Shown piece after piece: positions 3,067 to 30,359 of a stretch of 64,000 bases of DNA; position 1 is the stretch's first letter; each line of letters opens with the position of its first letter. Source of the DNA: Aeromicrobium sp. (GTDB taxonomy: Bacteria; Actinomycetota; Actinomycetes; Propionibacteriales; Nocardioidaceae); NCBI GenBank assembly GCA_035281505.1, contig DATEDT010000114.1, positions 5,488 to 69,487 on the forward strand, given 5' to 3'. The notes below the pieces were generated by a model. It ran no database searches, had not been told where the DNA came from, and saw only the letters and a program-made list of their open reading frames with translations. Made by a program: the position numbers and the translations under genes.

Positions 3067-4022
3067 GCCTTCTTCAATCGACCGATGACCCCGTCGATGT
3101 CCCGTTGCAGCATGTCCCGCCGGACGAAGTGCGCACCAGACAGTTCGTGCCACTCGTGCGGAATCCCGCGCGATGCCAAGATGCCGCGCCATTCGCGCTG
3201 GCCGTTGCGAACCGGTGTTTCGTTCACGTCCTCATCCAGACCGCAGACCATGAAGATGCGCTTGTCCAGGTAGCTGTTGATCCGCTCGACCGGGTTGTCC
3301 GCGGTGACACGGGCCTGATCCCAGAAGGGCTCGCCATAGATCGTGCCGCCGTTCAGATCGATCTTCGAGCTCTGATTCGCCCAGTGGGCCACCAGGCCGC
3401 CATCGCGGCGCAGGCTGGCAGGCCCGGAGTGCGAACTTACGGATGCGAAGTGACCGTAGTACTTCGCGGTGTACTTCAGTGCTCCGAATCCACCCATGGA
3501 GAACCCGCCGACGGCCCTCCCGTCGTACTCGGCGTAGGTGCGGAAGTTCGCATCGACCCAGGGGATCAGTTGGTTGATGTGGAAGTTCTCCCAGTTCTTC
3601 GGTCCGCTGAAGCTCGTCTTCGGGTTGCTGTACCACCCGGCCCCGCCGCCGTCTGGCATCACGACGATCAGCTTTCGGCCCGCGGTCAGGCCCCGGATGT
3701 CGTCTTCCATGTCGAACTTGCGGAAATCCTGGAGGCCGCCGTGCAGGAGGTAATAGACGGGGTAGCGCCGCGTCGTCGTCGTGAAGTAGTCATCGGGAAG
3801 CAGGACGTTGACGCCCGGCTGCCAACTGATCTGGTTGGTCGCGAACCGGAAGTAGTGCATTCGGCCGAACACAGCCTGATCGGTGATGGTCAGCCCGAAG
3901 CCGTTGTTGGCTGCTGCCGCCACTCCTCCACCCAGTCCCACCGAGCCGAGTGCGCCGAGCGCTGCCGCGCCGCCGGCCAACTTCAACAGCGTGCGCCGAT
4001 CGAGCGGCTCGTTGGCATCCAT
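3063..4022 (-). CDS. Secreted esterase-family alpha/beta hydrolase (esterase D / antigen-85-like)
   Basis: 319 aa. Twin-arginine signal 'DRRTLLKLAGGAAALGALG', 'YPVYYLLHG', and nucleophile elbow 'GFSMGG'. 4-nt 3' overlap with cobF. Confidence 0.7.
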   Translation of the reverse strand: MDANEPLDRRTLLKLAGGAAALGALGSVGLGGGVAAAANNGFGLTITDQAVFGRMHYFRFATNQISWQPGVNVLLPDDYFTTTTRRYPVYYLLHGGLQDFRKFDMEDDIRGLTAGRKLIVVMPDGGGAGWYSNPKTSFSGPKNWENFHINQLIPWVDANFRTYAEYDGRAVGGFSMGGFGALKYTAKYYGHFASVSSHSGPASLRRDGGLVAHWANQSSKIDLNGGTIYGEPFWDQARVTADNPVERINSYLDKRIFMVCGLDEDVNETPVRNGQREWRGILASRGIPHEWHELSGAHFVRRDMLQRDIDGVIGRLKKA

Positions 4023-4132
4023 GTGGTCCTCCGTGGTCGATCAGGTCACCCAAATATCGGTGCGGTCGCAGGGACAGGGCCATGGCCGAGTGGGCCACTT
4101 TGGTTGTCATTTCGGGCCACGCGGGGTAGGAC

Positions 4133-5143
4133 ATGAGCGTGGTGGAGTGGTTCGACCGGCCAGCCGTTCCCGTTGCGTACGCGCTGCTCATTGGTGATGT
4201 GGCGTCGTCGTTCGGGGTCGGCCAGGAGTTGTTCGAGGCCGCCGGTGTCGCGCCCGAGGCACTGGTCGATCCGGACGGCCGCCTGACCGCGATGCAGGCC
4301 GGAAGCCTCCTGCACTTCGGCATGGAGCTGACTCGGGAGCCCGGATTCGGCTATGAGGTCGGGTTGCGCAGCAGTTTGACGTCCCACGGCGTCATGGCTT
4401 TCGGGCTGCTGACGTCGGCCACCTTGCGCCAAGCCATCCAGCTCGGTGCCGAGTACAGCAGCGTCCGCCTGCCGATGCTGGGGATCCAGCTCGTTGAGGA
4501 TGGCGAGCAAGCCGGGGTCGACGTGCAACAGACTTTCCCGCTCGGCGCTGTCCGCCAATGTCTGTTCGACCTGTTCCTCGTCGGGCTGGCGCGCATGACC
4601 CCGGCGCTGACGGGCCGACCCGTGGATTCTGTCGAGCTGTGGTTCGAGTGCATGGAACCGGAGCACTTTGCTCGGTACCGCGACCGGCTGCCCCCGGTGC
4701 GCTTCGGTATGGGCGTCAATCAGCTCCGGTTCGACGCGGAGTATCTCGACCTTCCGTTCGACACCGCCAATGAGCTCGCATCCCGCGTTGCGCAACAGCA
4801 GATGGCCGGCGAACTCACCCGAATCGGCCTGTCTGACGAAGACCTCGTCGGGCGGGTGCGCGCTCTGCTGACCGCCGGAGCGGCCTCCGGTCTCGCCGAC
4901 GTCGCGCAGGCCCTGCACGTCTCACCGCGAACGCTCAAGCGCCGGTTGAGCGACCACGGAGTGACGTTCCACGCGTTGGTGTCTGACGTACGACGCACCG
5001 AGGCGATCCGGCTACTTCGCCATTCAGTCCTGACCGTCGAGCAGATCGGTGCTCAGCTCGGCTACGCCGACGCCGGCAACTTCTGCCGGGCATTCAAGCG
5101 GTGGACCGGCACGACACCCGGGATGGTTCGGAGATCCGGCTGA
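4133..5143 (+). CDS. AraC family transcriptional regulator
   Basis: 336 aa. C-terminal double HTH 'SPRTLKRRLSDHGVTFHALV...IGAQLGYADAGNFCRAFKRWTGTTPG'. Confidence 0.85.
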   Translation: MSVVEWFDRPAVPVAYALLIGDVASSFGVGQELFEAAGVAPEALVDPDGRLTAMQAGSLLHFGMELTREPGFGYEVGLRSSLTSHGVMAFGLLTSATLRQAIQLGAEYSSVRLPMLGIQLVEDGEQAGVDVQQTFPLGAVRQCLFDLFLVGLARMTPALTGRPVDSVELWFECMEPEHFARYRDRLPPVRFGMGVNQLRFDAEYLDLPFDTANELASRVAQQQMAGELTRIGLSDEDLVGRVRALLTAGAASGLADVAQALHVSPRTLKRRLSDHGVTFHALVSDVRRTEAIRLLRHSVLTVEQIGAQLGYADAGNFCRAFKRWTGTTPGMVRRSG

Positions 5144-5654: not shown

Positions 5655-6056
5655 TCAGGCCTGGTTGATCCGGATCATGTTCCCGGACGGATCGCGGAAC
5701 GCGCAGTCACGGGCACCCCACGGCTGGTCCATCGGTTCTTGCATCACGTCGGCACCGGAGGCGCGCACCTTCTCGAACGTCTCGTCCAGATCGGCGACCG
5801 CGAAGCTGACGCCGTTGAGCGCACCCTTGGCGAGCAGCCGGGCCATCGTGTCGCCATCCTCCGGCGAGCGCCCGGCGTGGGGATCGGACAGCACCAGGTT
5901 GACGCCGGGCTGCTCCGGTAGCGCGAGGGTGGCCCAGAAGGATCCACCGCGCTCGACATCGCCGACCAGCTCCATGCCGAGGGCGTCACGGTAGAAGGTG
6001 AGGGCGATGTCCTTGTCGTGGACAGTGAGGAATGCGTTGTTGATGGTGATCGTCAT
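5655..6056 (-). CDS. VOC (glyoxalase/bleomycin-resistance) family protein
   Basis: 133 aa with 'FYRDALGMEL' and 'WGARDCAFRDPSGNMIRI'. Confidence 0.75.
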   Translation of the reverse strand: MTITINNAFLTVHDKDIALTFYRDALGMELVGDVERGGSFWATLALPEQPGVNLVLSDPHAGRSPEDGDTMARLLAKGALNGVSFAVADLDETFEKVRASGADVMQEPMDQPWGARDCAFRDPSGNMIRINQA

Positions 6057-6071
6057 GACTCCAGCCTTCCG

Positions 6072-6509
6072 TCACGCCCCGTCTCGGCGCTTCTTGATTC
6101 CTGCTCGATTGGCTTCCTTGTCGATGCATGCGGGCAGTCCGGTGTCTACGTGCGCGCGGCTGCGATAGGCGGAGGGCGTCTCGCCGACCAGTTCGGTGAA
6201 CCGCGCACTGAACGACCCCAGGGATGTACAGCCGACGGCCATGCAGACATCGGTGACGCTCAGGTCGCCGCGCCGCAGCAACGCCATCGCGCGCTCGATC
6301 CGCCGCGTCATCAGATAGCCGTACGGCGTCTCGCCGTAGGCGCGTTTGAACTGGCGGGCGAAGTGCGCTGGCGACATCAGCGCCTCCCGCGCCATCCGGG
6401 GGACGTCGAGCGGCTGGTCGTACTCGCGGTCCATCAGGTCCTTCGCGCTGCGCAGCCGGGCCAGCTCGGCGAGTTCGCGCGCTTGGGTGGCGGACGTCGA
6501 CGGGGTCAC
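6072..6509 (-). CDS. Small AraC-type HTH regulator
   Basis: Contains 'HFARQFKRAYGETPYGYLMTRRIERAMALLRRGDLSVTDVCMAVGCTSLGSFSARFTELVGETPSAYR'. The ORF is open to 6623, but that start would overlap the divergent epimerase start, so GTG 6509 was chosen (uncertain). Confidence 0.7.
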   Translation of the reverse strand: MTPSTSATQARELAELARLRSAKDLMDREYDQPLDVPRMAREALMSPAHFARQFKRAYGETPYGYLMTRRIERAMALLRRGDLSVTDVCMAVGCTSLGSFSARFTELVGETPSAYRSRAHVDTGLPACIDKEANRAGIKKRRDGA

Positions 6510-6557
6510 ACGCACAGTCTGCCGTGACCCGGCGGCGGCTCCCGTAGGCTCGGGCGC

Positions 6558-7550
6558 ATGAGTGCGCAGGAAGCGACGGGGCACGCCTTGGTCACCGGCT
6601 CGGCCGGCTTCATCGGGAGTCACCTGGTCGATCGGCTGTTGGCCGAGGGGTGGACGGTGACCGGCATCGACAACTTCGATCCCTACTACGCCGAGTCACA
6701 GAAGCGCCGGAACATGGCCGGGCACGTCGACCACGCCGCCTTCCGTTTCCATGAGTTGGACTTCCGCGACGCCGACTCGCTCACGGCACTCGACGGCGAC
6801 TACGACGTCATCGTGCACCTGGCCGCGAAGGCCGGCGTGCGCAACTCGTTGCTCGACCCGCTCGGCTACCAGATGACCAACATCGTGGGCACGCAGAACC
6901 TGCTGACGTTCGCGCATGAGCGCGGCATCACGCCGTTCGTCTGTGCCAGCTCCAGCAGCGTCTACGGCAACTGCCCCCGGCTGCCCTGGAGCGAAGACGA
7001 TCACGACCTGCTGCCCATCAATCCCTACGCCTCGACGAAGTTGGCGTGCGAGCAGCTCGGATACGTGTACGCCAACACGTTCGGGATGCGTTTCGTCGGC
7101 CTTCGGTTCTTCACCGTCTACGGACCCCGCCAGCGGCCCGACCTGGCGATCCACAAGTTCGCCCGCAAGATGCTTGCCGGCGAGCCCATCCCGGTGTTCG
7201 GAGACGGCAGTGCCGAGCGAGACTTCACCTACTGCGACGACATCGTCTCCGGTGTCATCGGCTCGATGCGCCATGCGATGGACCCGCAGAAGTCGAACTA
7301 CGAGGTCTTCAACCTCGGACACAACCGGACGATCAGCCTGGCCGACATGATCAGTCGCCTGGAGAAGGTGCTTGGTCTTTCCGCCGTCATCGACTGGCAG
7401 GACTGGCAGCCCGGTGACATGCGGCGGACGTGGGCGACCATCGACAAGGCCAACCACATGCTCGGCTATGAACCGGTCACCGACTTCGACGAAGGCCTCC
7501 AGCGCTTCGCCGCCTGGCTGGACGAGACGCTCGCTGCCGAACGCGCATGA
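6558..7550 (+). CDS. NAD-dependent nucleotide-sugar epimerase/dehydratase (SDR)
   Basis: 330 aa. Rossmann motif 'VTGSAGFIGSHL' and catalytic 'YASTKLACE' (YxxxK). Confidence 0.85.
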   Translation: MSAQEATGHALVTGSAGFIGSHLVDRLLAEGWTVTGIDNFDPYYAESQKRRNMAGHVDHAAFRFHELDFRDADSLTALDGDYDVIVHLAAKAGVRNSLLDPLGYQMTNIVGTQNLLTFAHERGITPFVCASSSSVYGNCPRLPWSEDDHDLLPINPYASTKLACEQLGYVYANTFGMRFVGLRFFTVYGPRQRPDLAIHKFARKMLAGEPIPVFGDGSAERDFTYCDDIVSGVIGSMRHAMDPQKSNYEVFNLGHNRTISLADMISRLEKVLGLSAVIDWQDWQPGDMRRTWATIDKANHMLGYEPVTDFDEGLQRFAAWLDETLAAERA

Positions 7551-8479
7551 CCCAGCAGGGCCGTGTGCGCCGCGCGCTGGGCAGCGCAGTCGGGCTCGTC
7601 GTCCTCGGTGTCTTCGGATGGGCCGTCCAGCACTATTGGGGTTGGCAGAAGCTCTTCGTGCCCTGGACGTGGGTCCCGGTGTGGCTGGTCGCGGTGGTGG
7701 TCGTGGCGCAGCTGGCCAGCTATTCGGTGCGGGCCTACCGGATCTACCACGCCGAGCCGGAGATCCCGCGCGGGCGCTGGCACGACTGCCTCAAGCTCAT
7801 CCTGCTGAACAACACGGCGAACCTGCTGCTCCCTGCCCGCACGGGCGAAGCGAGCTTCCCACTGCTGCTCAACCGTTGGTTCGGCGTCGGCGCTGCGAAG
7901 GGGTCCGGCACTCTGCTCTGGTTGCGGATGCTCGACCTGGCGGTGCTGGCGGTGCTGGCGCTCGCGGTGCTCGGTCGGACGCTGGTGCCCGGAATCCCCA
8001 TCGCGCTGCTTGCCGGACTCTGTCTCGCGGGTGTCGCCGCTCCGCTGCTCGCCTTGCCCGTACACGCGCGGGTCGCCCGCGGCCTCACCGGACGCGACGG
8101 CAGGATCGCCGGGCTCGTCGGCAAGGTTCTGGCCGGCGTACCCAACCGAACGCGTCAGGTCCTGGTCGACATCGGCCTGACCTGGACGGCGTGGGGCATC
8201 AAGCTGGCGGCGTTGGCGATCGTGTTTGCTCAGCTCGCCGGGCTGTCGCTGCCGGCCGCGCTGATGGGCGCCATCGGGGGCGACCTGTCGACGGTCCTGC
8301 CGGTCCATGCCCCCGGTGGTTTCGGCACCTATGAGGCCGGCGTCGTCGGGCTGGTGGCGCTCGTGGCCGACGCCGGGCCGGCGTTGCTCGCCGCCGCGGT
8401 CAACCTGCACTTGCTCGTCCTGGGCATCGCCCTGATGGGTGGGGCCTATGCTTGGCTGACACAGCCACGCCGCACCTAA
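7547..8479 (+). CDS. Polytopic membrane protein, UPF0104 / lysyl-PG-synthase-TM ('flippase-like') type
   Basis: 310 aa with about 8 hydrophobic segments and an ATGA overlap with the epimerase gene. The family call rests on topology and neighbourhood only. Confidence 0.5.
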   Translation: MTQQGRVRRALGSAVGLVVLGVFGWAVQHYWGWQKLFVPWTWVPVWLVAVVVVAQLASYSVRAYRIYHAEPEIPRGRWHDCLKLILLNNTANLLLPARTGEASFPLLLNRWFGVGAAKGSGTLLWLRMLDLAVLAVLALAVLGRTLVPGIPIALLAGLCLAGVAAPLLALPVHARVARGLTGRDGRIAGLVGKVLAGVPNRTRQVLVDIGLTWTAWGIKLAALAIVFAQLAGLSLPAALMGAIGGDLSTVLPVHAPGGFGTYEAGVVGLVALVADAGPALLAAAVNLHLLVLGIALMGGAYAWLTQPRRT

Positions 8480-9567
8480 AGGGCACTGTCATCGAGAATC
8501 CCCCCCAGACCCCAGTCGCCCAATCATCGGCACAGGGCGTCCCGAGCCTGTCCGTCGTCATCCCGATGTACCGCGAACAGGACAACGTCAGACCGATGTT
8601 GGAGGGCGTCCACGCCGGGCTTGCCGAGTACCCAGGCCCTTGGGAACTCATCGTCGTCGACGACGGCTCGACCGACGAGACGGGCCCGCGTCTCGTCGAA
8701 GCGGCGAAGGAGTACGGCCCGCACGTTCGGGTGTTGCGCTTCGCCCGCAACCATGGCCAGACGGCGGCGATGCAGGCCGGCATCGATGCCGCGCGCGGTG
8801 TCGTGATCGCCACCCTCGACGGCGACCTGCAGAACGACCCGGCCGACATCCCGCGGCTGGTCACCGAGATGTTGGACCGTGACCTCGACCTGCTCGCGGG
8901 CAAGCGTGCGAACCGCCAGGATGCCTGGCTTTCGCGCAAACTGCCGAGCAAGATCGCCAACCGCATCATCGGCCGCGTCACCGGCGTGCGCATCACCGAC
9001 TACGGCTGCAGCCTCAAGGTCTACCGGGCCAGCGTCATCAAGCAGGTCCGGTTGTACGGCGAGATGCACCGCTTCATCCCGGTGTGGGCGGCCATGGTCA
9101 CCTCTCCGCACCGGATCGCCGAATCCCCGGTGAGCCACTCGGCCCGCCAGTTCGGTAGCAGCAAGTATGGGATCTCCCGTACCTTCCGGGTCATCCTCGA
9201 CCTGCTGACCGTGTCGTTCTTCCTGCGCTTCCAAGCTCGCCCGGGCCACTTCTTCGGATCGCTCGGCCTGATTCTCGGCGCCATCGGTGGCGCCGTGATG
9301 TCCTACTTGGCCGTCGTGAAGTTCGCCTTCGGGCAGGACATCGGCGACCGGCCGCTGTTCCTGATCAGCATCCTGTTGCTGGTGTTCTCGATGCAGTTCA
9401 TCACCACCGGGATCATCTCCGAGATGCTCACGCGCATCTTCTACCAGGACCGTCCGCGGGTCGCCTTGGTCAACGAAGCGACGAACGTGCACGACGGCAC
9501 GGCCGGATGGATGACGCAGTCGTTCACGGGAACGGGAGCGGACGAAGTCACAGCACGAAGGGGATGA
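8452..9567 (+). CDS. GT2 polyprenyl-phosphate glycosyltransferase (GtrB/ArnC/PpgS-like)
   Basis: 371 aa. 'LSVVIPMYREQDN', 'IVVDDGSTDETG', 'LDGDLQNDP' (DxD), and two C-terminal TM helices. The only in-frame start upstream of the conserved core is TTG 8452, giving a 28-nt overlap with the previous gene. Confidence 0.85.
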   Translation: MADTATPHLKGTVIENPPQTPVAQSSAQGVPSLSVVIPMYREQDNVRPMLEGVHAGLAEYPGPWELIVVDDGSTDETGPRLVEAAKEYGPHVRVLRFARNHGQTAAMQAGIDAARGVVIATLDGDLQNDPADIPRLVTEMLDRDLDLLAGKRANRQDAWLSRKLPSKIANRIIGRVTGVRITDYGCSLKVYRASVIKQVRLYGEMHRFIPVWAAMVTSPHRIAESPVSHSARQFGSSKYGISRTFRVILDLLTVSFFLRFQARPGHFFGSLGLILGAIGGAVMSYLAVVKFAFGQDIGDRPLFLISILLLVFSMQFITTGIISEMLTRIFYQDRPRVALVNEATNVHDGTAGWMTQSFTGTGADEVTARRG

Positions 9568-10309
9568 CCCACTTCGTGCGCTTCTTGTACGCGGCCCACT
9601 CCGGGTAGCGCGACATGCTGGCTTCCTTCATGACCATGTTCGTCAGGAACAGGTCCGTCCACACCCAAGCCAGCACCACGAACGGGATCCAGTGCCACAC
9701 CAGCAGCGCGAGCCCGCCGTAGATCATCATCTCGCCGGTGTAGTTGGGATGGCGGACATAGGTGAACATGCCATCGGTGATGAGCCCACGTTTGATGCGC
9801 AACGTGAAGTGCTTCTGGGCGTCGGCCGCGATCATGATGACCGAGCCGAGCATCGTCACCGTGATGCACAGCGCGAACCACGCGGTGTCCGGTAGCGGGT
9901 ACTCCGTGGCGGCGCGGCCGGAGATCAGCAGCCAGCCGAACAGCCAGTAGAGCCCGAGCACCATCACGAAGGCGTTGATTCCGCCGAGGACGGTGACCCT
10001 CTTCTGCCAGCTCGGGTCGGGGAACGCCTTGTCCTTGAGGTACCAGACCAGTCCGTACGTGCCGTGCAGGGCGAGGTAGATCCACGCAGCGGTGCTGGTG
10101 GCTGCTTCGACACCGCGGCTGGAGTAGAACCACATCAAGAGCCCGAGGAAGGCGAAGGTCCCGGTTTTCTGGAAGTTGATGACCGTCGCGAGCTTCCACG
10201 GCCGTGGGCCGCCACCGATGTCCTGAGTCAGGAAGTCGTTGTTGCGGCGCAGCAGTTGTGCCCACTTCGGTGCAGCGTAGGCCGTCGTCGCGTTGTCCTG
10301 AAGCGTCAT
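9548..10309 (-). CDS. Membrane methyltransferase-like protein (ICMT/PEMT/DUF1295 superfamily)
   Basis: 253 aa from ATG 10309 (ORF open to 10459). Multi-TM protein with the signature 'TYVRHPNYTGEMMIYGG'. 20-nt convergent overlap with the GT2 gene. Confidence 0.6.
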   Translation of the reverse strand: MTLQDNATTAYAAPKWAQLLRRNNDFLTQDIGGGPRPWKLATVINFQKTGTFAFLGLLMWFYSSRGVEAATSTAAWIYLALHGTYGLVWYLKDKAFPDPSWQKRVTVLGGINAFVMVLGLYWLFGWLLISGRAATEYPLPDTAWFALCITVTMLGSVIMIAADAQKHFTLRIKRGLITDGMFTYVRHPNYTGEMMIYGGLALLVWHWIPFVVLAWVWTDLFLTNMVMKEASMSRYPEWAAYKKRTKWVIPFVL

Positions 10310-10397
10310 GCCGCCATCATGGCCCAGCCGCGACGAGGCGGACAGAGGTTGGGACAAAAGCGATGCATCGTGCCCAGCCGCGGCCTGGTGGCCGAAG

Positions 10398-11033
10398 CTA
10401 CGACGACCCGTGCGCGGCCACCCATTCCAGGAAGGGTGTGGCGACCCGCCAGTCGGCACGCACCCGATCGATCAGGTCCGGTGCGTGAATGACAGGGTCG
10501 AATCCGTACTCGCGGCCGACCGTCAGCGACTTGTGACGCAGCAACTCGATTCGCGGGTGCTCGACGTCGTACCCGCGCGGTGCGGTCTTGAGCGTCTCCC
10601 CGCCGATCTTCCAACCGGCGGCCTCCAGCTCGGCCAGGATCCCGACGAGCTGCGTCCCGTGCGCCTCGTCCGAGATGGCCTCTCGGATCACCGCGAGCCG
10701 CGTCGACGACGCCTCGTAGAAGCCGGCACCGACCATCACGCCGGCGGCGCCGATCTGCACGTAGTACCCGGTGGACGGCCCGGTGGCGACGTACGCACCC
10801 TGGTGCGTCTTGTACGGCGACTTGTCCTTCGCAAACCGCACGTCACGGTACGGGCGGAAGATCTTCGCCGCACCGAACTCGGGCTCGAGGGCTGCGGTCA
10901 GCGCCTTCATCGGTGCGGCGACGGCTTCGTCGTAGATCGCCTTGTGCGCCTGCCAGAACGACTTGGTGTTGTCGAGCTCGAGGTCGTCGTAGAAGTCCAG
11001 GGCTGCCTCGGGGAAACCGGTGAAGTCGCTCAT
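10398..11033 (-). CDS. DUF2461 (TIGR02453) family protein
   Basis: 211 aa from ATG 11033. Motifs 'FTGFPEAALDFYDDLELDNTKSFWQAHK' and 'IFRPYRDVRFAKDKSPYKTH'. 4-nt overlap with the upstream stop codon. Confidence 0.7.
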   Translation of the reverse strand: MSDFTGFPEAALDFYDDLELDNTKSFWQAHKAIYDEAVAAPMKALTAALEPEFGAAKIFRPYRDVRFAKDKSPYKTHQGAYVATGPSTGYYVQIGAAGVMVGAGFYEASSTRLAVIREAISDEAHGTQLVGILAELEAAGWKIGGETLKTAPRGYDVEHPRIELLRHKSLTVGREYGFDPVIHAPDLIDRVRADWRVATPFLEWVAAHGSS

Positions 11034-12010
11034 GGCGCGTCGGGCGTCAACACGATCTTGCCGAGGGCTCCGCGGTGGTCCATCACGGACAGCGCGCGAC
11101 CGGCGTCGGCCAACGCGAACTCGGCGCCGATCGGTGGCCTGATGACTCCGGACTCGATGTGGGGGCGCAACTCCTCGAACTGGTACCGGATGAATCCTGG
11201 CCGCGACAGTGCGTAGTGCCCCCATCCGACACCGAGGACGCCGGTGTTGTTGAGCAGAAGCCGGTTGACCTTGACTTCGGGGATCTGGCCTTCGTCCGTG
11301 AACCCGATGACGAGAACGCGGCCGTGCGTTCGCAGGCTGCGCAGCGAGTCAGTGAAGCGGCTCCCGCCCACAGGGTCGACGACGATGTCGATCCCGTCGA
11401 CTCCGTCGAGTTCCTTGGTGGCGGCCAGGAAGCCGTCGGCCGGGACGGCGTCGTCGGCTCCGGCAGCGTGCGCGATGGCCCGCTTCTCCTCGGTCGACGC
11501 GACCGCGATGACGCGGCCGGCGCCAAAGGCCTTCGCGGTCTGGATCGCCGCCGTGCCGACGCCGCCGGCGGCGCCATGGACCAGCACGACCTCGCCCGGC
11601 TGAAGGTGTGCGCGGGTGACCAGTGCGAAGTGCGCGGTCAGGTAGTTGAGCGGAAGCGCCGCGCCCTGGGCGTAGGACAGCTCATCTGGCAGGGCGAAGG
11701 TGTTGTCGGCCGGCGCGACCGCGTACTCGGCGAACCCACCGAGCATCACCATCGCGGCCACCCGATCGCCGGGGGTGAAACCCGAGCCGTCCGGCGCGGA
11801 CACCACGTCGCCAGCCACCTCCGATCCCGGTGTGAACGGCGGGTCCGGCTTGAACTGGTAGAGGCCGCGCGTCTGCAGCAGCTCGGGGAACGAGATGCCG
11901 GCCGCGCGCACTCGGATGAGCACTTGGTCTGGGCCGGCCTCCGGGACGGGGACGTCATTGAGCTGAACCGCGTCGGGCCCGTCGAGGCAGACGATCTGGA
12001 TGGCCTTCAT
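11030..12010 (-). CDS. NADPH:quinone oxidoreductase (MDR/zeta-crystallin family)
   Basis: 326 aa with 'GSEVAGDV' and the NADPH motif 'VLVHGAAGGVGTAAIQ'. Confidence 0.85.
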   Translation of the reverse strand: MKAIQIVCLDGPDAVQLNDVPVPEAGPDQVLIRVRAAGISFPELLQTRGLYQFKPDPPFTPGSEVAGDVVSAPDGSGFTPGDRVAAMVMLGGFAEYAVAPADNTFALPDELSYAQGAALPLNYLTAHFALVTRAHLQPGEVVLVHGAAGGVGTAAIQTAKAFGAGRVIAVASTEEKRAIAHAAGADDAVPADGFLAATKELDGVDGIDIVVDPVGGSRFTDSLRSLRTHGRVLVIGFTDEGQIPEVKVNRLLLNNTGVLGVGWGHYALSRPGFIRYQFEELRPHIESGVIRPPIGAEFALADAGRALSVMDHRGALGKIVLTPDAP

Positions 12011-12022
12011 GGACCGAGGTTA

Positions 12023-13510
12023 TTAGGCGGCGGTCTTGGCCTTCTTGGCGGCCGACCGCCACGCGAAGTGCTCGGCGACGACCTTGCGGGTCTCCCACCA
12101 GTACTGGAAGGTGAACTTGGGCCAGATCGTGCGGTTCTTGCCCTGCGCGTCGAGATACCAGCTCGTGCATCCGCCCTGGGTCCAGATGCCCTTGGTCACC
12201 AGGCGCTGGATCTCCTCGTTCCACTCGTCCTGTGCCTGCTTCGTCACCTCGACGACGTCCGCGCCGCGCTTCTCCATCTCCTCGAGCATCGTGAGGATGT
12301 ACTTCGTCTGCTGCTCGATCATGAACACGACCGAGTTGTGGCCGAGCGCCGTGTTGGGGCCGAGCATCAAGAACAGGTTGGGCACGCCGTGAATGGTCAT
12401 GCCCAGGTAGGTCTCCACCCCGTGCTTGCGGAACTGCTCACCCACGTCCATGCCGTCGCGGCCCTTGATGTCGAGGAAGTCGAACGCATCGACCACGTGG
12501 AAGCCGGTGCCGTAGATGATCACGTCGGCCTCGTGCTTGTTGCCCGCGGCGTCGATGACACCGTCCGGGACGATCTCGCTGACGTGGTCGGTCACCAGGT
12601 CGACGTTGGCGCGGTTGAATGTCGGGTAGTACGTGTTCGACTGCAGGACGCGCTTACAGCCGAGGCGGTAGTCGGGCGTGAGCTTGCGGCGCAGCTCCGG
12701 ATCGTCGATGGCGCGAGCGATGTTCGCCTTCGCCAGCTTCTCGGCGTACGGGAGGACGTTCAGGTGCCCGTTGAACGCGATGGCACGCGCTTCCAGGCCC
12801 CAGTAGATGGCGTCCCGATAGGCGCGGGTCAGACCGGGCACCTTGTCGAAGAACTTCTGCCGAACCGGGTGGATCGCGTTGTCCTTCTTGCCCAGGACCC
12901 ACGGAGGTGTGCGCTGGAAGACGGTCAGGTGCTCGACTTCTTCGGCGATGATCGGGATGAACTGGATGGCGCTGGCGCCGGTGCCGATGACGGCGACCTT
13001 CTTTCCGGCGAGGTCGACCGTGTGGTCCCATTCAGCCGAGTGGAAGCGTGGCCCGGCGAAGGTTTCGGCACCGCCGATCGCCGGGATGTTGGGAATGTGC
13101 AGGCCGCCGACGCCGGAGAGCACGATGCGCGCCTCGTAGTCCTCGCCGGCGCTGGTGCGCACCGTCCACACCGAGCGGTCCTCGTCCCACGCGAGGCCGG
13201 TCACTTCGACGCCGAAGTGGATGTAGGGCCGGATGCCCTTTTCGTCGGCCACCTTCTGCATGTACGCCCAGATCTCGGGTTGAGCCGAGAAGTTGCGACT
13301 CCAGTCGGGGTTGAGCCGCCAGGAGAACGAGTACATGTGGCTGGGGATGTCGCATTCGCAGCCCGGGTAGGTGTTGTCGCGCCAGGTGCCTCCGACATCG
13401 TCGGCCTTCTCCAGGATGGCGAAGTCGGTCCGGCCGGACTCCAGCAGCTTGACCGCTGCACCCATGCCGGAAAAGCCGGTGCCGATGACGACGATGTCCT
13501 TGGTGATCAC
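12023..13510 (-). CDS. Flavin-dependent Baeyer-Villiger/EthA-type monooxygenase
   Basis: 495 aa, GTG start. FAD motif 'VVIGTGFSG', BVMO fingerprint 'FAGPRFHSAEWDH', NADP motif 'VAVIGTGASA'. Confidence 0.85.
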   Translation of the reverse strand: MITKDIVVIGTGFSGMGAAVKLLESGRTDFAILEKADDVGGTWRDNTYPGCECDIPSHMYSFSWRLNPDWSRNFSAQPEIWAYMQKVADEKGIRPYIHFGVEVTGLAWDEDRSVWTVRTSAGEDYEARIVLSGVGGLHIPNIPAIGGAETFAGPRFHSAEWDHTVDLAGKKVAVIGTGASAIQFIPIIAEEVEHLTVFQRTPPWVLGKKDNAIHPVRQKFFDKVPGLTRAYRDAIYWGLEARAIAFNGHLNVLPYAEKLAKANIARAIDDPELRRKLTPDYRLGCKRVLQSNTYYPTFNRANVDLVTDHVSEIVPDGVIDAAGNKHEADVIIYGTGFHVVDAFDFLDIKGRDGMDVGEQFRKHGVETYLGMTIHGVPNLFLMLGPNTALGHNSVVFMIEQQTKYILTMLEEMEKRGADVVEVTKQAQDEWNEEIQRLVTKGIWTQGGCTSWYLDAQGKNRTIWPKFTFQYWWETRKVVAEHFAWRSAAKKAKTAA

Positions 13511-23311: not shown

Positions 23312-23794
23312 ATGAAGCGTGCGACGCCCCTGCTCGTCGTCGCCGTGGTCGGCGCCGGCATCATCATCGGCACGTTGGTGCGTCCGCTGGCAGCGCGGAT
23401 GGACGCCACGCCACCGCAGATCGGCTGGGGCCCGGCCACCATGCTCTTCACGTTCGCGCTGCTGATCGCCGCGATGGCGTGGAACACCTGGCAGAGCCTG
23501 CACAAGAAGCATGAGCGCATGACCTCGGACCACGGCGTCAAGATGCTGGCCCTGTCCCGCTCCAGTCTGATCGTCGGTGGGTTGTTCGGCGGCGGCTACG
23601 GCGGTTACGCGTTGTCGTTCGTGCCCGACCTCGACACGCCGCTCGGTGCGGCCCGGGTGTGGCACGCCGGCGGTGCCGCGGTGGCCGGGTTGTTGCTCAT
23701 CGTGGCGGCACTCCTCCTGGAGCGTGCCTGCCACATCCCGGGTGGGGACGACGAGGACCCGGAACCCAACGGGGCGGCCGCGTCGGCGGCGTAG
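23312..23794 (+). CDS. DUF3180-like small membrane protein
   Basis: 160 aa from ATG 23312 (ORF open from 23117), with 4 hydrophobic helices. It occupies the conserved slot after folK, Rv3605c-like by my recollection. Confidence 0.55.
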   Translation: MKRATPLLVVAVVGAGIIIGTLVRPLAARMDATPPQIGWGPATMLFTFALLIAAMAWNTWQSLHKKHERMTSDHGVKMLALSRSSLIVGGLFGGGYGGYALSFVPDLDTPLGAARVWHAGGAAVAGLLLIVAALLLERACHIPGGDDEDPEPNGAAASAA

Positions 23795-23821
23795 ATCGAA
23801 GTATCGGCGGTGTTTCGTGCG

Positions 23822-23942
23822 GGGACGCATCTTTAGACATTCATGCGGTTTGTCGACCAAAGAACCGACGTTGATGCGGCTATGACGTAGCAAACGTCGA
23901 TACATCGGACGTGGGACGCACGAATGTCTAAACATGCGTCCC
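23822..23942. repeat. Long imperfect inverted repeat / nested hairpins in an AT-richer spacer
   Basis: Arm 23822-23847 'gggacgcatctttagacattcatgcg' is complementary to 23917-23942 at 24/26 positions. Inner hairpin: CGACGTT (23866-23872) with AACGTCG (23893-23899). The right arm also self-pairs: GGGACGCA (23913-23920) with TGCGTCCC (23935-23942). Confidence 0.7.
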
Positions 23943-23943
23943 A

Positions 23944-23977
23944 GAAGCGACCGAACGTCGGCACGTCACGTCGCTTC
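23944..23977. terminator. Candidate stem-loop (8-bp perfect stem GAAGCGAC/GTCGCTTC, 18-nt loop) just after the nuoD-like stop
   Basis: Read directly from the sequence. No U-tract follows on either strand, so terminator function is only a guess. Confidence 0.3.
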
Positions 23978-23988
23978 CCGCCGCGTGG

Positions 23989-25146
23989 CTATTTGTCGAT
24001 ATCCCCGACCACGAAGAACATCGAGCCGAGGATTGCGACCAGATCAGCGACGACGCAGCCACCCACGATCTCGGGCAGGACGGCGATGTTGTTGAACGAC
24101 GCGGTGCGCAGCTTGAGTCTCCACGGCGTCTTCTCCCCGCGCGAGACCAGGTAGTAGCCGTTCAGCCCCAGTGGATTCTCGGTCCAGACGTAGGTCGAAC
24201 CCTCCGGGGCTTTCACGATCTTCGGCAACCGGACGTTGACCGGTCCGGCCGGGAGTTCAGCGATGCGGGCCAGGCAGGCATCGGCGATGTCGAGGGAAGT
24301 CTTGGCCTGCTCGACGAGCACTTCGAACCGCGCGTAGGAGTCACCGGCGGTTCGCGTCACCACCCGCACGACCTCGCCGAGTTCGCCGTAGGCGAGGTAG
24401 GGCTCGTCCCGACGAAGGTCGAGGTCGACGCCAGACGCCCGCGCGATCGGCCCGGACACCCCATACGCGTGGACGAGCTCAGGAGAGAGGACGCCCACGC
24501 CAACAGTCCGTGCCCGGAAGATCTCGTTTCCGAGGATGAGCTCCTCGATCTGGCCGATCCGGCTCCGGACGGCTGCGATCGCGTCCGCTGCCCGGCCCAG
24601 CCAGCCGGCTGGAATGTCATCCTTCACGCCGCCGACGCGGTTGAACATGAAGTGCATCCGCCCACCGGACATCTCCTCCATGACCTCCTGGAGCGTCTCG
24701 CGCTCGCGGAAGGCGTAGAAGATCGGCGTGATGGCGCCCAGCTCGATGGGGTAGGAGCCCATGAACATCAGGTGGTTGAGGGTGCGGTTGAGCTCAGCCA
24801 GCAGCGTCCGAATCCACGTGGCTCGCTCCGGCACCTCGATGCCGAGCATGTTCTCGACGGCCATGGCGACGCCGAGTTCGGAGCTGAACGCGCTCAGCCA
24901 GTCGTGCCGGTTTGCCAGCATGATGATCTGGCGATAGTCGCGTGCCTCGAAGAGCTTCTCGACGCCGCGATGCATGTAGCCGATGATCGGCTCGCAGTGC
25001 ACGATGCGTTCGCCGTCGAGCGTCAGGCGCAACCGCAGGACGCCGTGAGTGGCCGGGTGCTGGGGTCCGATGTTGAGCACCATGTCGGTGGTCGCAAAGC
25101 CGCTGCCCAATGCGGCCGTCATCTCACGGACCCCCTCCGGTGTCAT
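23989..25146 (-). CDS. Stand-alone NuoD-like protein (complex I 49-kDa / NDUFS2 / Nqo4 homologue)
   Basis: 385 aa from ATG 25146. The R/P-rich 155-codon upstream extension of the ORF was rejected. Motifs '[15 protein letters not shown]', '[12 protein letters not shown]', '[12 protein letters not shown]' and C-terminal 'FFVVGDIDK'. No other nuo genes are present in the window. Confidence 0.9.
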
Positions 25147-25151
25147 AGCCG

Positions 25152-26066
25152 TCAGTCTCGCACGCGGGTGTCGGTGACGATCCACCAGAAGTCGCCCCAA
25201 CCACCGCGCGCGCGGAGCTCGGCGGCCTCCGCGGCGCCGGCCAGCTCGGCAAGGTAGCGCGCGGGCTCGGAGTGGGCGAGTTCCAAGGGCGGACGTGCGC
25301 CGTTCACGCCCAGGCGGGCCAGGGCGTCGCGCTGGCGCTCGAGGCGTGCGCCGACGCGGTTGGCCACCGCATCGACGGCCACGTGCGCGGTGATGTCCCG
25401 CGATCCGTCCGGTCGGATGTCGACCTCCTGTCCGTTTCGATACGACGCAAGAGAGCCGAAGGGCGGACGAGCTTCGGCGAGGTGGCCGTAGTCGATGGCG
25501 ACGGCGAGCCCGGTCACCGCCTGAACGGCCGCGGCCCAGGCCTCGTCCCGCGGCTCGCCGATCTCGGCCCGTGCGCCCGGCTCTTCGAGTGGCCACCACG
25601 CGTCGATCCATCCCGAGTCGAGCGGATCCCCCAGCCGTTCATTGCCGGTCTCCGGGTCGACCAGGACGAGGCGCACGACACCGTCGTCGTCCAGCTCGAC
25701 GACATCGCACGGCACGTTGTCGAGCCATTCGTGCGCCACGAGCAGTCCGTCGAACTCGGCTGGCAAGTCGCGGTGCCAGCCGATGGCCGAGGGCAGCGAC
25801 GGCGGCCTGGGAGCCAGGTCCACGCCGATCAGAGTCAATCCCGGCTCGAGCACGCTCAACCGGGTCAGGAGCTCCCCGCCGCCGGCGCCGAGATCGACCA
25901 CCGTGGCCAGCCCCTCGTCCCGAGCCAGCTGGGCGATCGCCTGGGCGAAGACCTCCGACGCCGTGACCGCCGTCCGGAAGTGCTGCGCCGGCCGTGCGGT
26001 CACGAAGAACCCGTCGGGTCCGTAGAGGGCCTCGGTCCACGCTTCCCGCCACGACACATGGGGCAT
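25152..26066 (-). CDS. SAM-dependent methyltransferase, DUF185 / MidA / NDUFAF7 family
   Basis: 304 aa from ATG 26066. Motifs '[10 protein letters not shown]', SAM motif '[11 protein letters not shown]', 'AHEWLDNVP', 'VAIDYGH', '[10 protein letters not shown]...DITAHVAVD'. Its stop lies 5 nt before the nuoD-like ATG. Confidence 0.8.
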
Positions 26067-26192
26067 GGGCCCGAGCCTAGGCGCTGTGATCGTGGCCACA
26101 AAGACACCTCTTCCACCTTGACCTGCAGCGACGTAAGATCGTTGCGTCAACGTCTGGTACCCCTCGCGGGACTGGAACGAAAGGCAAGAAGC

Positions 26193-27113
26193 ATGACGGG
26201 TATCCCCGTGCAGGGCGCGCTGCCCCGCGCTGTCGCGACGGTCGGCGTCGTTGGCGCCGGACGCGTCGGCGCCGTTCTGGCGGCCAAGTTCCGTGCCGCC
26301 GGCCACCCGGTGGTCGGTGTCAGCGGCCGGTCGGCGGCTTCGCAACTGCGGATCCAGACCCTGCTCGAGGGGGTCGAGTCGCTTGAGCCGGCCGAGGTGG
26401 TCGAGCGCGCCGACGTCGTCCTGATCGCGGTTCCTGACGACGCCTTGGCCGATGTCGCCGCCGAGCTCGCCGCGCACGTGCGGGCAGGTCAGGTTGTCAT
26501 GCACACCAGCGGCCGCCACGGCTTGGCCGTGCTGGCCCCCATGACCGACGCCGGTGCGCGGGCCATTGCCTTCCATCCGGCGATGACGTTCACCGGCACC
26601 GAGGTCGACCTCGAGCGAGCCTGTGCCTATGGGCTGACGGCACGGCCGGCAGACCGTCCGCTGGCCGAGGCGCTGGTCATCGAACTCGGCGGCACGCCCG
26701 AGTGGATCGACGAGACCGATCGGACGAGCTACCACGCAGCCCTGTCACACGGCGCCAACCACCTCAACACGCTGGTGGCCCAGGCCATGGACGTGCTGCG
26801 GGGCGCCGGTGTCGCCGATCCGTCCGCCGTGCTTCGGCCGCTGCTGACCGCGGCCCTCGACAACACCCTCGCGTACGGCGACGCCGCGCTGACCGGTCCG
26901 GTGGCACGGGGCGATGTCAGCACCGTTCAAGCGCACACCGAGACACTCGCGGGGCAGCCGGAGATCCTCGACGCCTATGTGGCCCTTGCCCGGGCCACGG
27001 CCGCTCGCGCCGCCGAGAGCGGACGCATCGATGCGGCCACCGCGGCCGCCCTGCGCCAGGTCCTGTCCGAGGCCGAGTGGGAATCGCTCGCCGCGGCGAC
27101 GGTGATCGCCTGA
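26193..27113 (+). CDS. Rossmann-fold / DUF2520 domain protein (Rv3603c-like)
   Basis: 306 aa from ATG 26193. Motifs 'VGVVGAGRVGAVLAAKF', 'VVLIAVPDDAL' and C-terminal 'TGPVARGD'. ATGA overlap with panC. Confidence 0.7.
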   Translation: MTGIPVQGALPRAVATVGVVGAGRVGAVLAAKFRAAGHPVVGVSGRSAASQLRIQTLLEGVESLEPAEVVERADVVLIAVPDDALADVAAELAAHVRAGQVVMHTSGRHGLAVLAPMTDAGARAIAFHPAMTFTGTEVDLERACAYGLTARPADRPLAEALVIELGGTPEWIDETDRTSYHAALSHGANHLNTLVAQAMDVLRGAGVADPSAVLRPLLTAALDNTLAYGDAALTGPVARGDVSTVQAHTETLAGQPEILDAYVALARATAARAAESGRIDAATAAALRQVLSEAEWESLAAATVIA

Positions 27114-28408: not shown

Positions 28409-29188
28409 ATGAGCCTGCTCACGTTGGACATCAGCAACAGCCACACCACCTTCGGGATCTTCGAAGGTGACAAGCTCACGGCGCACTGGCGCGTCAAGTC
28501 CGACGAGCACCGAACCTCCGATGAGTGGTACCTGGTCCTGCAGGGCCTGATCACCCGCACGACCCTCGCCACGGTGGAGGCCGTGGCCGTCGCGTGCACG
28601 GTGCCGGCGATCCTGGTCGAGATTCGCGCGATGATCGAGCGGTACTACGCCGACGCGCCGGTCGCAATCGTCGGCCCCGGGGTCAAGACGGGCGTGCCGA
28701 TCCACACCGACAACCCCCGTGAGGTCGGCGCCGATCGCATCGTCAACGCCCTGGCGGCGGCCGAGCTCTACGGCGGTCCGGCCATCGTCGTCGACATGAA
28801 CGGGACTGCGACGATCTTCGATGTCGTCGACGAGACCGGCGCCTACATCGGTGGCGCGATCGCGCCGGGCGTCGAGCTGTCCCTGGAGGCGCTGTCGCGT
28901 CGCGGTGCGCAACTGCGTGCCGTCGAGCTGGCCAAGCCGCGCGGAGTCATCGGCAAGGGCACCGTCGAGGCCATCCAGTCCGGGGTCGTCTTCGGGTTTG
29001 CCGGCGGTGTCGACGGGATCGTTCGCCGCATCATCGACAGCTTGGGGGTCGATGACGAGGACGTGACCGTCGTGGTGACGGGCTCCTACCCCGAGGCCGT
29101 CATCGACGCCTGTACGACGATCACCGACCGTGACCCGTTCCTGACCCTGGAAGGACTGCGGCTCGTCCACGAGCGAAACCACGTGTGA
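28409..29188 (+). CDS. coaX: Type III pantothenate kinase
   Basis: 259 aa with 'LLTLDISNSHTTFGIF', 'GADRIVNA' and 'VVDMNGTATIFD'. Confidence 0.9.
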   Translation: MSLLTLDISNSHTTFGIFEGDKLTAHWRVKSDEHRTSDEWYLVLQGLITRTTLATVEAVAVACTVPAILVEIRAMIERYYADAPVAIVGPGVKTGVPIHTDNPREVGADRIVNALAAAELYGGPAIVVDMNGTATIFDVVDETGAYIGGAIAPGVELSLEALSRRGAQLRAVELAKPRGVIGKGTVEAIQSGVVFGFAGGVDGIVRRIIDSLGVDDEDVTVVVTGSYPEAVIDACTTITDRDPFLTLEGLRLVHERNHV

Positions 29189-30359
29189 CCGCCCGCCAAA
29201 CGCGCGCCACCATCCGGCCGATCGCAACGCGGAGGAGCCGACGCGCCGGAACCTGCGCGAGGGTGCTTTCGAGCTGAGCCTCACCGGGATCCTCGAAATC
29301 GGGTCCTCGCCAGGTGCCTGCTGACAGCATGCCGGCCAACGCCTCGGCAGCCAGCTCGACCGGCACCTCGTCCACCGGATCCTCGGCGAGGGACCGGGAC
29401 GGTGGCTTGCCGGCCAGGGCGGAGAGGTCACCGATGACGCGGACGCCGGTCGCAGCAATCTGGTCGGCGAACTCGGCGCCACGCTCGGCGGCGCGCACTG
29501 CGGCCCAGTCGGGCAGGATCAGGCGCTCGCCGGCGCCGGGAGGTTCCTCCATGAGTCGACGCTGCGCACCGAAGCGGACGATGCGCTCGTAGTCGTCCCA
29601 GTCGACGTCATAGGGCTCGATTGCGCGGTTGAGCGCGAGGAAGAGCTCGGCCTCGGCGGTCGTCAGTCCCCGATTGGCCGCGTAGCCGTCGAGGTCCTCG
29701 GCTGCGAGTGTTCCCGGACGAAGAGCAAGCAGTTGCTCGACGCCGGTCGTGAGCAGCTCGGGCCGGCGGGAGTCGGTGACGATGACCGTCACCCGGTCCG
29801 GACCGGCGGCCTTCACCCAGCGGCGCACCACGCCGCCCTGGTCATTGCGCCGGTGGAACCGCCGGGTGACCGAGCGGTCCGGCGGGTCGGCGAGCACGGC
29901 CCGCAACCAGTCCTCGAAGCCGGTCGTCGTCCCGGCCTTGACGAACTGCTGCCACGCCGACGGGAGAATCGCACCGAAGCTGCGGAGCGTGATGAGGACG
30001 TGGCATCGCTCACCGATGGCGTCGACGAATCCCCGGGCCGTCGCCTTGTTGGCCTCGGACGCAAACTCGTGACCGAAGAACACCCGACGTGATTCGTCGG
30101 CCTCGATCTCGGCTATCAGGGCGTCCCAGCGCTCCCGTGGCGGCGTGGTTGCGCCGCCCTTGCCCCAGCCCCAGCTGCGTCCCATGAAGCCGAGCACTGC
30201 GCCGCGCTGATTGACCTTGTCGCCGGGATACTGAACGCCCTGGCGCAGCAGCTCGTCCCGCTTGGCCGCTGCTGCCACCTGCAGCGACGTCGTTCCTGAC
30301 TTCGGAATGCCGATGTGGAACAGGCGCGTGCGCTCCGGTAAAGCCTCTGTGCAGTCCAT
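29121..30359 (-). CDS. Sulfotransferase-like protein
   Basis: 412 aa. PAPS 5'-phosphosulfate-binding-type loop 'HIGIPKSGTTSLQ' (PKSGTTS codons at 30285-30305) and an R-x7-S element 'LRSFGAILPS'. The Arg-rich C-terminus overlaps the coaX 3' end by 68 nt. Confidence 0.5.
   Translation of the reverse strand: MDCTEALPERTRLFHIGIPKSGTTSLQVAAAAKRDELLRQGVQYPGDKVNQRGAVLGFMGRSWGWGKGGATTPPRERWDALIAEIEADESRRVFFGHEFASEANKATARGFVDAIGERCHVLITLRSFGAILPSAWQQFVKAGTTTGFEDWLRAVLADPPDRSVTRRFHRRNDQGGVVRRWVKAAGPDRVTVIVTDSRRPELLTTGVEQLLALRPGTLAAEDLDGYAANRGLTTAEAELFLALNRAIEPYDVDWDDYERIVRFGAQRRLMEEPPGAGERLILPDWAAVRAAERGAEFADQIAATGVRVIGDLSALAGKPPSRSLAEDPVDEVPVELAAEALAGMLSAGTWRGPDFEDPGEAQLESTLAQVPARRLLRVAIGRMVARVWRAVTRGFARGRAAVLPGSGTGHGR

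Follow-up and report, generated by a model that had tools for sequence, protein, structure and literature searches.

Within a 64,000-nucleotide (nt) stretch of DNA from Aeromicrobium sp. (assembly GCA_035281505.1, contig DATEDT010000114.1, positions 5,488-69,487 of the forward strand), all of which is referred to as the window, a gene for a MidA/NDUFAF7-family methyltransferase is followed on the minus strand by a gene for a paralogue of NuoD, the homologue of the complex I subunit NDUFS2. We favour the reading that the two genes are a conserved actinobacterial module, a dedicated modifier-substrate pair whose NuoD paralogue probably docks on a NuoB-type subunit, and we give this reading a probability of roughly 45%; the modifier-substrate idea itself, though still a proposal, has good comparative support. 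What speaks most for a functional link is that the pair persists through genome rearrangement, and the candidate target is an arginine at the position at which NDUFAF7 dimethylates NDUFS2, a modification needed for assembly of human complex I. The two genes and the codons that bear on the argument lie at the following positions of the window.

25152-26066, minus strand: MidA/NDUFAF7-family methyltransferase gene; ATG at 26066, TGA stop at 25154-25152; 304 amino acids; PF02636, COG1565
23989-25146, minus strand: nuoD-like gene of the 'R-H-D-W' clade; ATG at 25146-25144, TAG stop at 23991-23989; 385 amino acids; PF00346
25045-25047, minus strand: His34 codon CAC; the residue matches the quinone ligand, Thermus H38 and bovine His59
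24967-24969, minus strand: CGC, coding for Arg60 of the HRGxEK motif and matching bovine NDUFS2 Arg85 and Yarrowia R121; candidate methylation site
24898-24909, minus strand: R80-H81-D82-W83, the signature of the clade, in place of the R-M/L-D-Y of canonical NuoD; Trp83 is TGG at 24898-24900
24646-24654, minus strand: His165-x-Met167; the His165 residue, beside cluster N2, matches Thermus H169 and Yarrowia H226

The NuoD paralogue and the methyltransferase

As judged from family models, the nuoD-like gene encodes a divergent member of the NuoD/NDUFS2 family. The protein matched the Pfam model PF00346 Complex1_49kDa (4.5e-71, 239.5 bits, cutoff 24) and passed the NCBIfam model NF004739 (378.1 bits, cutoff 360), and it is called divergent because it fell under the cutoffs of TIGR01962 (384 vs 459) and NF008974 (395 vs 522). 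Solved NDUFS2/NuoD chains were matched at E about 1e-81. Residue equivalences were taken from a HMMER alignment to mouse NDUFS2 (6g2j_D), in which 'nrhdWlsaf' stands opposite 'drldYvsmm', 'gymhRgvek' opposite 'gllhRgtek', and 'hpatHg' opposite 'hpaaHg'. Trp83 thus occupies the position of the quinone-ligating Tyr108 of the mature subunit, Arg60 that of R118 of the precursor (R85 of the mature subunit), and His34 that of His59. A sequence-only reading of the window had arrived by manual alignment at the same three assignments, namely Tyr replaced by Trp, His34 kept, and Arg60 equivalent to Arg85, and the HMMER alignment agrees with all of them.

In Thermus numbering, H38, T64, R84, M85, and Y87 correspond to His34, Arg60, Arg80, His81, and Trp83 of the window protein, and D139, H169, R350, and D401 correspond to Glu135, His165, Leu326, and Phe377. 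The set of quinone head-group ligands (Y87, H38, and D139) is therefore incomplete, with His34 present and Trp83 and Glu135 at the other two positions. The HRGxE motif is present as H59-R60-G-V-E63, and the three positions around cluster N2 are filled by R60, R80, and H165, the last aligned with Yarrowia H226, an N2-surrounding residue at Thermus position 169. Yarrowia R121 and R141, equivalent to Thermus 64 and 84, surround this cluster (PMC8042128).

A monomer model of the paralogue from AlphaFold2 (AF2) had a predicted local distance difference test score (pLDDT) of 69 from an alignment of 37 sequences, and Foldseek placed it in the NuoD fold, with a template modelling score (TM) of about 0.65 to complex I chains. 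The lowest-confidence stretches of the model (62-89, 318-352, and 379-383) are its most conserved segments, which would fit, if weakly given the shallow alignment, surfaces that become ordered only against a partner.

The neighbouring enzyme is a true member of the MidA/NDUFAF7 family as far as sequence, profile, and predicted fold can assign it, in agreement with the identification first made from the window alone. It matched PF02636 Methyltransf_28 (MidA/DUF185) above threshold (4.2e-15, 56.3 bits, cutoff 23.3, model positions 70-237/249), and its homologues carry the Joint Genome Institute (JGI) label 'SAM-dependent MidA family methyltransferase', SAM standing for S-adenosylmethionine. For the enzyme (METHYLTRANSFERASE), a 15-member family profile searched against solved structures returned two bacterial COG1565/DUF185 proteins, 4f3n (2.8e-18) and 1zkd (1.2e-11), and Dictyostelium MidA 5ztz (6.9e-4), which bears the name 'protein arginine methyltransferase NDUFAF7 homolog'. 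Its AF2 model was of higher confidence (pLDDT 89.5, predicted template modelling score (pTM) 0.89), and Foldseek matched it to 4f3n (also 4g67) at 1.6e-18, to 1zkd at 8e-16, and to MidA 5zu0 at 2e-14 (query TM score (TMq) 0.70), the next match (1.6e-4) being ten orders of magnitude weaker than MidA. Among 43 close homologues, G62 and G64 of the class I SAM motif I (GxGxG) are invariant and G60 is nearly so, and the family motif 'NE-DxxP' appears as 'AHEWLDNVP' with E113, D116, and P119 invariant; in the more diverse 15-sequence set, only E113 and D116 of this stretch stay invariant. A fusion of the methyltransferase with NuoD (a Rosetta stone protein) was sought and none was found, the long NuoD representatives being upstream over-extensions from gene calling.

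The R-H-D-W clade and its gene neighbourhood

The nuoD-like protein was searched against 1.84 billion cluster representatives and the best 150 homologues were aligned; the quinone-Tyr position is occupied by Trp in 83 of them and by Tyr in 58. The motif R-H-D-W (RHDW) is invariant in 54 near-full-length representatives, which a neighbour-joining tree groups as a single deep, monophyletic branch; the most divergent of them are about 38% identical to the window protein. Close homologues (74-94% identity) come from Aeromicrobium, Mumia, Solicola, Kribbella, Jiangellaceae, Streptomyces, and Streptacidiphilus, and the clade spans Nocardioidaceae, Kribbella, Jiangellaceae, Streptomyces, and Propionibacteriaceae-like and unassigned lineages, a deep branch that includes locus L090 having been identified as Propionibacteriaceae-like by homologue search. 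By its place in this comparison, the window gene belongs to a clade of stand-alone NuoD paralogues that includes Streptomyces nuoD2. A 3.5-kb contig labelled Chloroflexota bacterium (L047) encodes an RHDW NuoD 78% identical to the window protein and is probably a mis-binned actinobacterial fragment.

Conservation within the clade separates two groups of residues. In Thermus numbering, Arg64, Arg84, His85, and Trp87 are each found in 54/54 representatives, His169 in 53/54, and Met171 in 42/54 (His165 and Met167 of the window protein), and His169 occurs in 5/30 of the nearest Tyr-type representatives. His38 is kept in 37/54, Asp139 shows no conservation, hydrophobic residues stand in for Arg350 and Asp401, and deletions are frequent around F146/F147. 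When orphan loci were aligned, Trp occupied the Tyr position in 87/87 sequences, the single Tyr of the 88 aligned belonging to the in-operon control L086, and the residue equivalent to Arg60 was Arg in 88/88 loci. The Tyr-to-Trp change first noticed in the window is thus real and clade-wide. The N2-facing positions (Thermus 64, 84, and 169) are fixed in the clade while pocket residues vary, and these alignments indicate that the quinone head-group pocket is rebuilt or degenerate across it (Y87W, M85H, R350L, and D401F, with D139 and H38 not clade-conserved).

The nearest relatives encoded inside operons (47-51% identity) are the D subunits of nuoA-B-C-D-H-I-J-K-L operons without E, F, and G. 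One of these, L087, has the motif R-I-D-W, with Trp at the quinone-Tyr position, and keeps H38, K350, and D401. Because this Trp-type NuoD is encoded within an A-B-C-D-H-I-J-K-L operon, the comparison indicates that Trp alone does not mean exit from a complex. The L087 contig, which is metagenomic and has 34% guanine plus cytosine (G+C), also carries a heliorhodopsin gene (3795-4598) about 1.2 kb upstream of the EFG-less nuo operon (5848-12224), with a phosphodiesterase-family gene on the opposite strand between the two.

Gene neighbourhoods were compared at 88 RHDW loci, comprising 80 genome loci and 8 of 10 loci fetched by protein look-up. The methyltransferase gene lies inside the fetched flank in 77 of these, in four arrangements: methyltransferase directly followed by the paralogue (8 loci), the same order and strand with an insert between them (42), the two genes convergent (25), and the paralogue followed by the methyltransferase (2). 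The convergent adjacent arrangement is that of most Streptomyces. Among the 11 loci without the methyltransferase, the flanks were short in seven and a full 6 kb in four. The order of methyltransferase and NuoD between DUF2520 and DUF3180 is kept in distant members of the clade (42-50% identity): the two genes overlap by 4 nt in L084 (46% identity) and by 10 nt in L089 (42%), and are separated by a short gap in L085 (48%). DUF3180 is likewise a neighbour in L084, L085, L088, L089, and L090. In the Propionibacteriaceae-like L090, panC and DUF2520 have been lost from the locus and the methyltransferase still precedes NuoD, and in Streptomyces the pair is adjacent in three orientations with DUF2520 and panC more than 6 kb off. 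Persistence of the pair across such distances and rearrangements argues for a functional pair rather than inherited synteny, and the expectation that the two genes would be kept as neighbours across Actinobacteria was borne out. Median identity to the window is 77% for the paralogue and 51-59% for the methyltransferase, DUF2520, PanC, FolK, and FolP; conservation as high as that of the paralogue is typical of a subunit with many contacts, as far as sequence can indicate.

The space between the methyltransferase and nuoD2 is also an insertion hotspot. In Aeromicrobium it holds a gene for a 490-amino-acid polysaccharide pyruvyl transferase (L003, 4550-6022, with equivalents in L002 and L004-L008), and in other Nocardioidaceae and Kribbella it holds 2-5 kb of other genes; these inserted genes are unrelated cargo. 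A two-component system (a DUF7134/HisKA_3 kinase and a LuxR-type regulator) directly adjoins the methyltransferase gene in every Streptomyces and Streptacidiphilus locus and likewise in one metagenome-assembled genome of Nocardioidaceae; the window has no such pair nearby. Coordinates of the two-component pair are 8286-10231 in L036, 2577-4704 in L033, 508-2429 in L018, and 7462-9596 in L088, a distant lineage in which a HisKA_3 kinase and a GerE regulator lie between the methyltransferase and NuoD. Several distant lineages further encode a conserved small protein of 93-105 amino acids with no Pfam match between NuoD and DUF3180, on the strand of the fol operon (L084, 11159-11452; L085, 4334-4615; L088, 12781-13098; L089, 4504-4821). 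At this place the window has only a 194-nt gap (23795-23988).

Within the window, the pair is flanked by ftsH-folE-folP-folB-folK-DUF3180 on one side and DUF2520-panC-panD-coaX on the other, and the remaining features of the locus are as follows.

23312-23794, plus strand: DUF3180 gene (Pfam 4.9e-23), which ends the ftsH-folE-folP-folB-folK block and is convergent with the nuoD-like gene
25131-25138, minus strand: Shine-Dalgarno-like GGAGGGGG, read from the sequence, with an 8-nt spacer to an internal in-frame ATG at 25122-25120
26067-26192, unstranded: 126 nt of intergenic DNA separating the divergent methyltransferase and DUF2520 genes (the latter with its ATG at 26193)
26193-27113, plus strand: Rossmann-like/DUF2520 gene (Pfam 1.1e-34), followed by panC-panD-coaX and divergent from the methyltransferase gene

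The sequence-only reading had placed the pair as an insertion between DUF3180 and DUF2520-panCD-coaX; Pfam confirmed these flanks, but the idea of a local insertion did not hold, as the same position is filled in very distant actinobacterial lineages. Its placement of the two genes 5 nt apart was verified (25151-25147, between the methyltransferase stop and the ATG at 25146). The start of the nuoD-like gene is ambiguous, however: ATG 25122 is better placed, and its use would give a protein of 377 amino acids and a gap of 29 nt, while gene callers picked yet another start position in the closest database homologue. The region 26067-26192 is presumed to be the promoter region of the pair, and a scan of it for the sigma-70 consensus gave no match, none being expected in an actinobacterium of 68% G+C. 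The earlier statement that the 64 kb hold no other nuo gene stood up to motif scans and to tblastn searches of the window with queries taken from two nuo operons (NuoA, B, C, H, I, J, K, and L), all of which were negative. No RNA elements or tRNAs were detected in the window. Elsewhere in it, between coaX and lysS, lies a 412-amino-acid open reading frame on the minus strand (29121-30359) with no Pfam match; its 3' end and the end of coaX share 68 nt, and its 'GIPKSGTTSLQ' resembles the sulfotransferase motif that binds 3'-phosphoadenosine-5'-phosphosulfate.

The candidate target arginine and competing explanations

Symmetric dimethylation is found on bovine Arg85 and likewise in Pichia and in Paracoccus Nqo4 (PMC3750175). 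NDUFAF7 is the enzyme that dimethylates Arg85 of NDUFS2 (PMC3829151), and cluster N2 depends on this arginine, which lies 3.7 Å away; E. coli leaves the residue unmethylated and Thermus has Thr in its place (PMC8042128). The sole characterised substrate of the MidA/NDUFAF7 family is a NuoD homologue, modified at an Arg that is invariant in the RHDW clade (PMC3829151, PMC3750175, PMC8042128). In our alignments, Thermus Nqo4 reads 'GYLHTGFEK' and M. smegmatis NuoD (8e9g_D) reads 'GYLHTGIEK', with Thr where the paralogue has Arg. M. smegmatis NuoD is the single canonical actinobacterial NuoD with a solved structure, and it is without the target Arg that every RHDW protein has. Since the canonical mycobacterial protein has Thr, the paralogue appears to be the only NuoD with the target Arg, a judgement carried over to the window organism from Mycobacterium.

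If the two genes are a modifier-substrate pair, the methyltransferase would methylate the paralogue at Arg60 as part of maturation or assembly, in parallel to the action of NDUFAF7 on NDUFS2 before NDUFS7 binds. The modified paralogue would dock on a NuoB-type, N2-carrying subunit, which could be supplied by the main complex I or by a D-less, nuo2-type membrane module encoded elsewhere, and the outcome would be an alternative Q-module with the canonical quinone site blocked or re-specified. A modifier-substrate pair had already been proposed from the window sequence; the invariant Arg60, the joint retention of the genes, and the contrast of Arg with Thr now speak for it, although the case stays comparative.

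Several observations weigh against the proposed pair and its docking. No other nuo gene was found beside an RHDW gene in 95 contexts (the 88 orphan loci and seven further distant contexts). The Streptomyces nuo2 cluster, which could supply the partner, is without nuoC too, and the literature describes its function as unclear. The HRGxE motif is structural in [NiFe] hydrogenases as well, and Arg60 may thus be invariant for reasons other than N2 (PMC8042128). Most loci do not have the pair strictly adjacent and Streptomyces has it convergent, meaning that co-transcription is not universal, and synteny extends over all of the fol-pan region, so that conservation of the neighbourhood is inflated.

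An alternative that we consider somewhat unlikely is that the paralogue has left complex I and serves as a soluble or peripheral sensor of redox state or of a ligand, or as an assembly factor, with the methyltransferase as its dedicated maturase and the former NiFe/quinone pocket rebuilt around His81, Asp82, Trp83, His165, and Met167, taken as invariant. The absence of neighbouring nuo genes in the 95 contexts speaks for this explanation, as do the degenerate quinone ligands (H38 in 37/54, changes at D139, R350, and D401, and the F146/F147 deletions), the new invariant residues His81 and Met167, and the depth and monophyly of the clade; the HisKA_3 kinase and LuxR regulator beside the module in Streptomyces, L018, and L088 and the lack of nuoC and of a known function for Streptomyces nuo2 point the same way. 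Set against it are the retention of all three N2 second-sphere residues, the very high sequence conservation, as in a subunit with multiple contacts, the Trp-bearing relative inside a full A-B-C-D-H-I... operon, and the existence of Streptomyces genomes with a D-less nuo2 cluster that would need a D subunit. The suggestion of the sequence-only reading that the orphan may act outside complex I was unsupported or overstated, given the N2-facing residues that are kept, the in-operon Trp-type NuoD, and the D-less nuo2 of Streptomyces. An unlikely, more specific form of the idea is that RHDW proteins are a free-standing family with the hydrogenase large-subunit fold, in which the re-lined pocket (His81, Asp82, Trp83, His165, and Met167) would be a new ligand or metal site, matured by the methyltransferase and perhaps reporting to the neighbouring two-component system. 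If true, the family would be an unrecognised redox or metabolite sensor conserved across Actinomycetota.

Less probable again is that the two genes are neighbours by inheritance only, both being old residents of the syntenic fol-pan block, with the methyltransferase acting on another substrate. The whole ftsH-fol-DUF3180 ... DUF2520-panC block is indeed syntenic in the same loci, unrelated genes separate the pair in 42/88 loci (for example the polysaccharide pyruvyl transferase of Aeromicrobium), most Streptomyces have the pair convergent, and four loci hold no methyltransferase within full 6-kb flanks; moreover, a 2025 paper states that the function of prokaryotic MidA has been inferred only in silico (PMC12455994). 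Against inheritance alone stand the three orientations in which the Streptomyces pair stays adjacent with DUF2520 and panC more than 6 kb away, the pair in L090, where panC and DUF2520 are absent, the start and stop codons that overlap in two distant lineages (L084 and L089), and the fact that the only characterised substrate of the family is a NuoD homologue, modified at an Arg invariant in the RHDW clade.

The Trp itself bears on a third explanation, in which a Trp-type NuoD is swapped into complex I as a resistance isoform against piericidin-like antibiotics of the quinone site. In 2015 Degli Esposti described Y87W, together with a change at D401, for 'NuoD of piericidin-producing Streptomyces' and took them as natural inhibitor resistance, and an engineered Y87W-type mutation abolished decyl-ubiquinone activity, left short-quinone activity, and gave strong resistance to rotenone and quinazoline (PMC4758237). 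The window protein bears both changes, as W83 and F377. The change from Tyr to Trp is real, and Y87W in a Streptomyces NuoD had already been published (PMC4758237). We nevertheless regard a resistance isoform as very unlikely: the changes are not specific to producers, being fixed throughout a deep clade, and the wider loss of pocket residues exceeds what resistance would require. Because the changes are fixed clade-wide, many non-Streptomyces lineages included, the published piericidin-producer sequences were, judging from our alignments, most likely those of the NuoD2 paralogue.

Base composition could suggest that the nuoD-like gene is a recently acquired foreign gene or a decaying pseudogene, as its total G+C (65.3%) is under that of the adjoining methyltransferase (72.0%) and DUF2520 (72.7%) genes, whole ftsH having 66.3%; this was ruled out by its G+C at third codon positions (GC3 of 0.87, on par with 0.85-0.92 in its neighbours), its intact reading frame, and the existence of homologues 74-94% identical in different families and orders that keep the same place on the chromosome. 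Since the deficit is confined to codon positions 1 and 2, the low G+C reflects amino-acid composition and is no anomaly. The contrast drawn earlier between the gene and its surroundings is thus real in total G+C, and the hint of foreign origin fails on GC3.

Significance and comparison with known systems

The nuoD2 annotation and its Trp are already known. What appears to be new is the clade-wide RHDW signature, its spread across Actinomycetota, the pairing with a methyltransferase, and the contrast of Arg in the paralogue with Thr in canonical NuoD. An ancient two-gene module of this kind across actinobacteria would be a bacterial model for a maturation step of complex I, and the enzyme and the paralogue would offer a genetically tractable system in Streptomyces and Aeromicrobium for the role of arginine modification. 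The module is also a concrete lead on two annotations without function, nuoD2 and nuo2, and the comparison suggests that the published natural piericidin resistance (Y87W) would really concern the paralogue. In the library searched, no literature was found on SCO3392, the gene annotation that we take to denote the Streptomyces nuoD2 loci, and none linking a MidA-type enzyme or DUF185 to an actinobacterial NuoD, with DUF185 papers judged by the titles listed.

The closest characterised parallel is NDUFAF7 with NDUFS2 or Paracoccus Nqo4, which shares with the proposed pair the target protein family and the arginine of the HRGxE motif. The window genes differ in being chromosomal neighbours that often overlap in relatives, and the presumed substrate is a divergent paralogue encoded apart from nuo genes, with Trp for the quinone Tyr, whose methylation is predicted. 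The enzyme belongs to the family of NDUFAF7 and MidA at three levels (PF02636, profile match, and predicted fold) but is shorter, at 304 amino acids against about 400, and is 15-23% identical to the solved family members. With respect to the engineered Y144W of Yarrowia and the E. coli NuoD mutants, the residue change in the window clade is identical; theirs is a single substitution in a canonical subunit, whereas the clade is natural and has several further pocket changes.

Among separately encoded homologues, the window gene aligns as an orthologue of Streptomyces nuoD2, with 74-77% identity over the full length, the methyltransferase as a neighbour there too, and, in some loci (L032 and L068), fol genes close by. 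The Streptomyces literature describes nuoD2 as encoded apart from the nuo2 cluster (SCO4599-4608; nuoA2, B2, and H2-N2), which has no N-module and is without nuoC, D, E, F, and G; it handles nuoD2 only as an annotation and, in the papers found, mentions neither the link to a MidA-type enzyme, nor the RHDW signature, nor the spread beyond Streptomyces. The D subunits of the EFG-less 11-subunit operons share with the window protein a short form, from which about 27 residues inserted in mitochondrial and Thermus NuoD are missing. They differ from it in sitting between nuoC and nuoH, in keeping D401, K/R350, and H38, and in having no methyltransferase seen beside them, whereas the RHDW paralogues are encoded apart from other nuo genes and, in 77 of the 88 loci, near a MidA-type enzyme.

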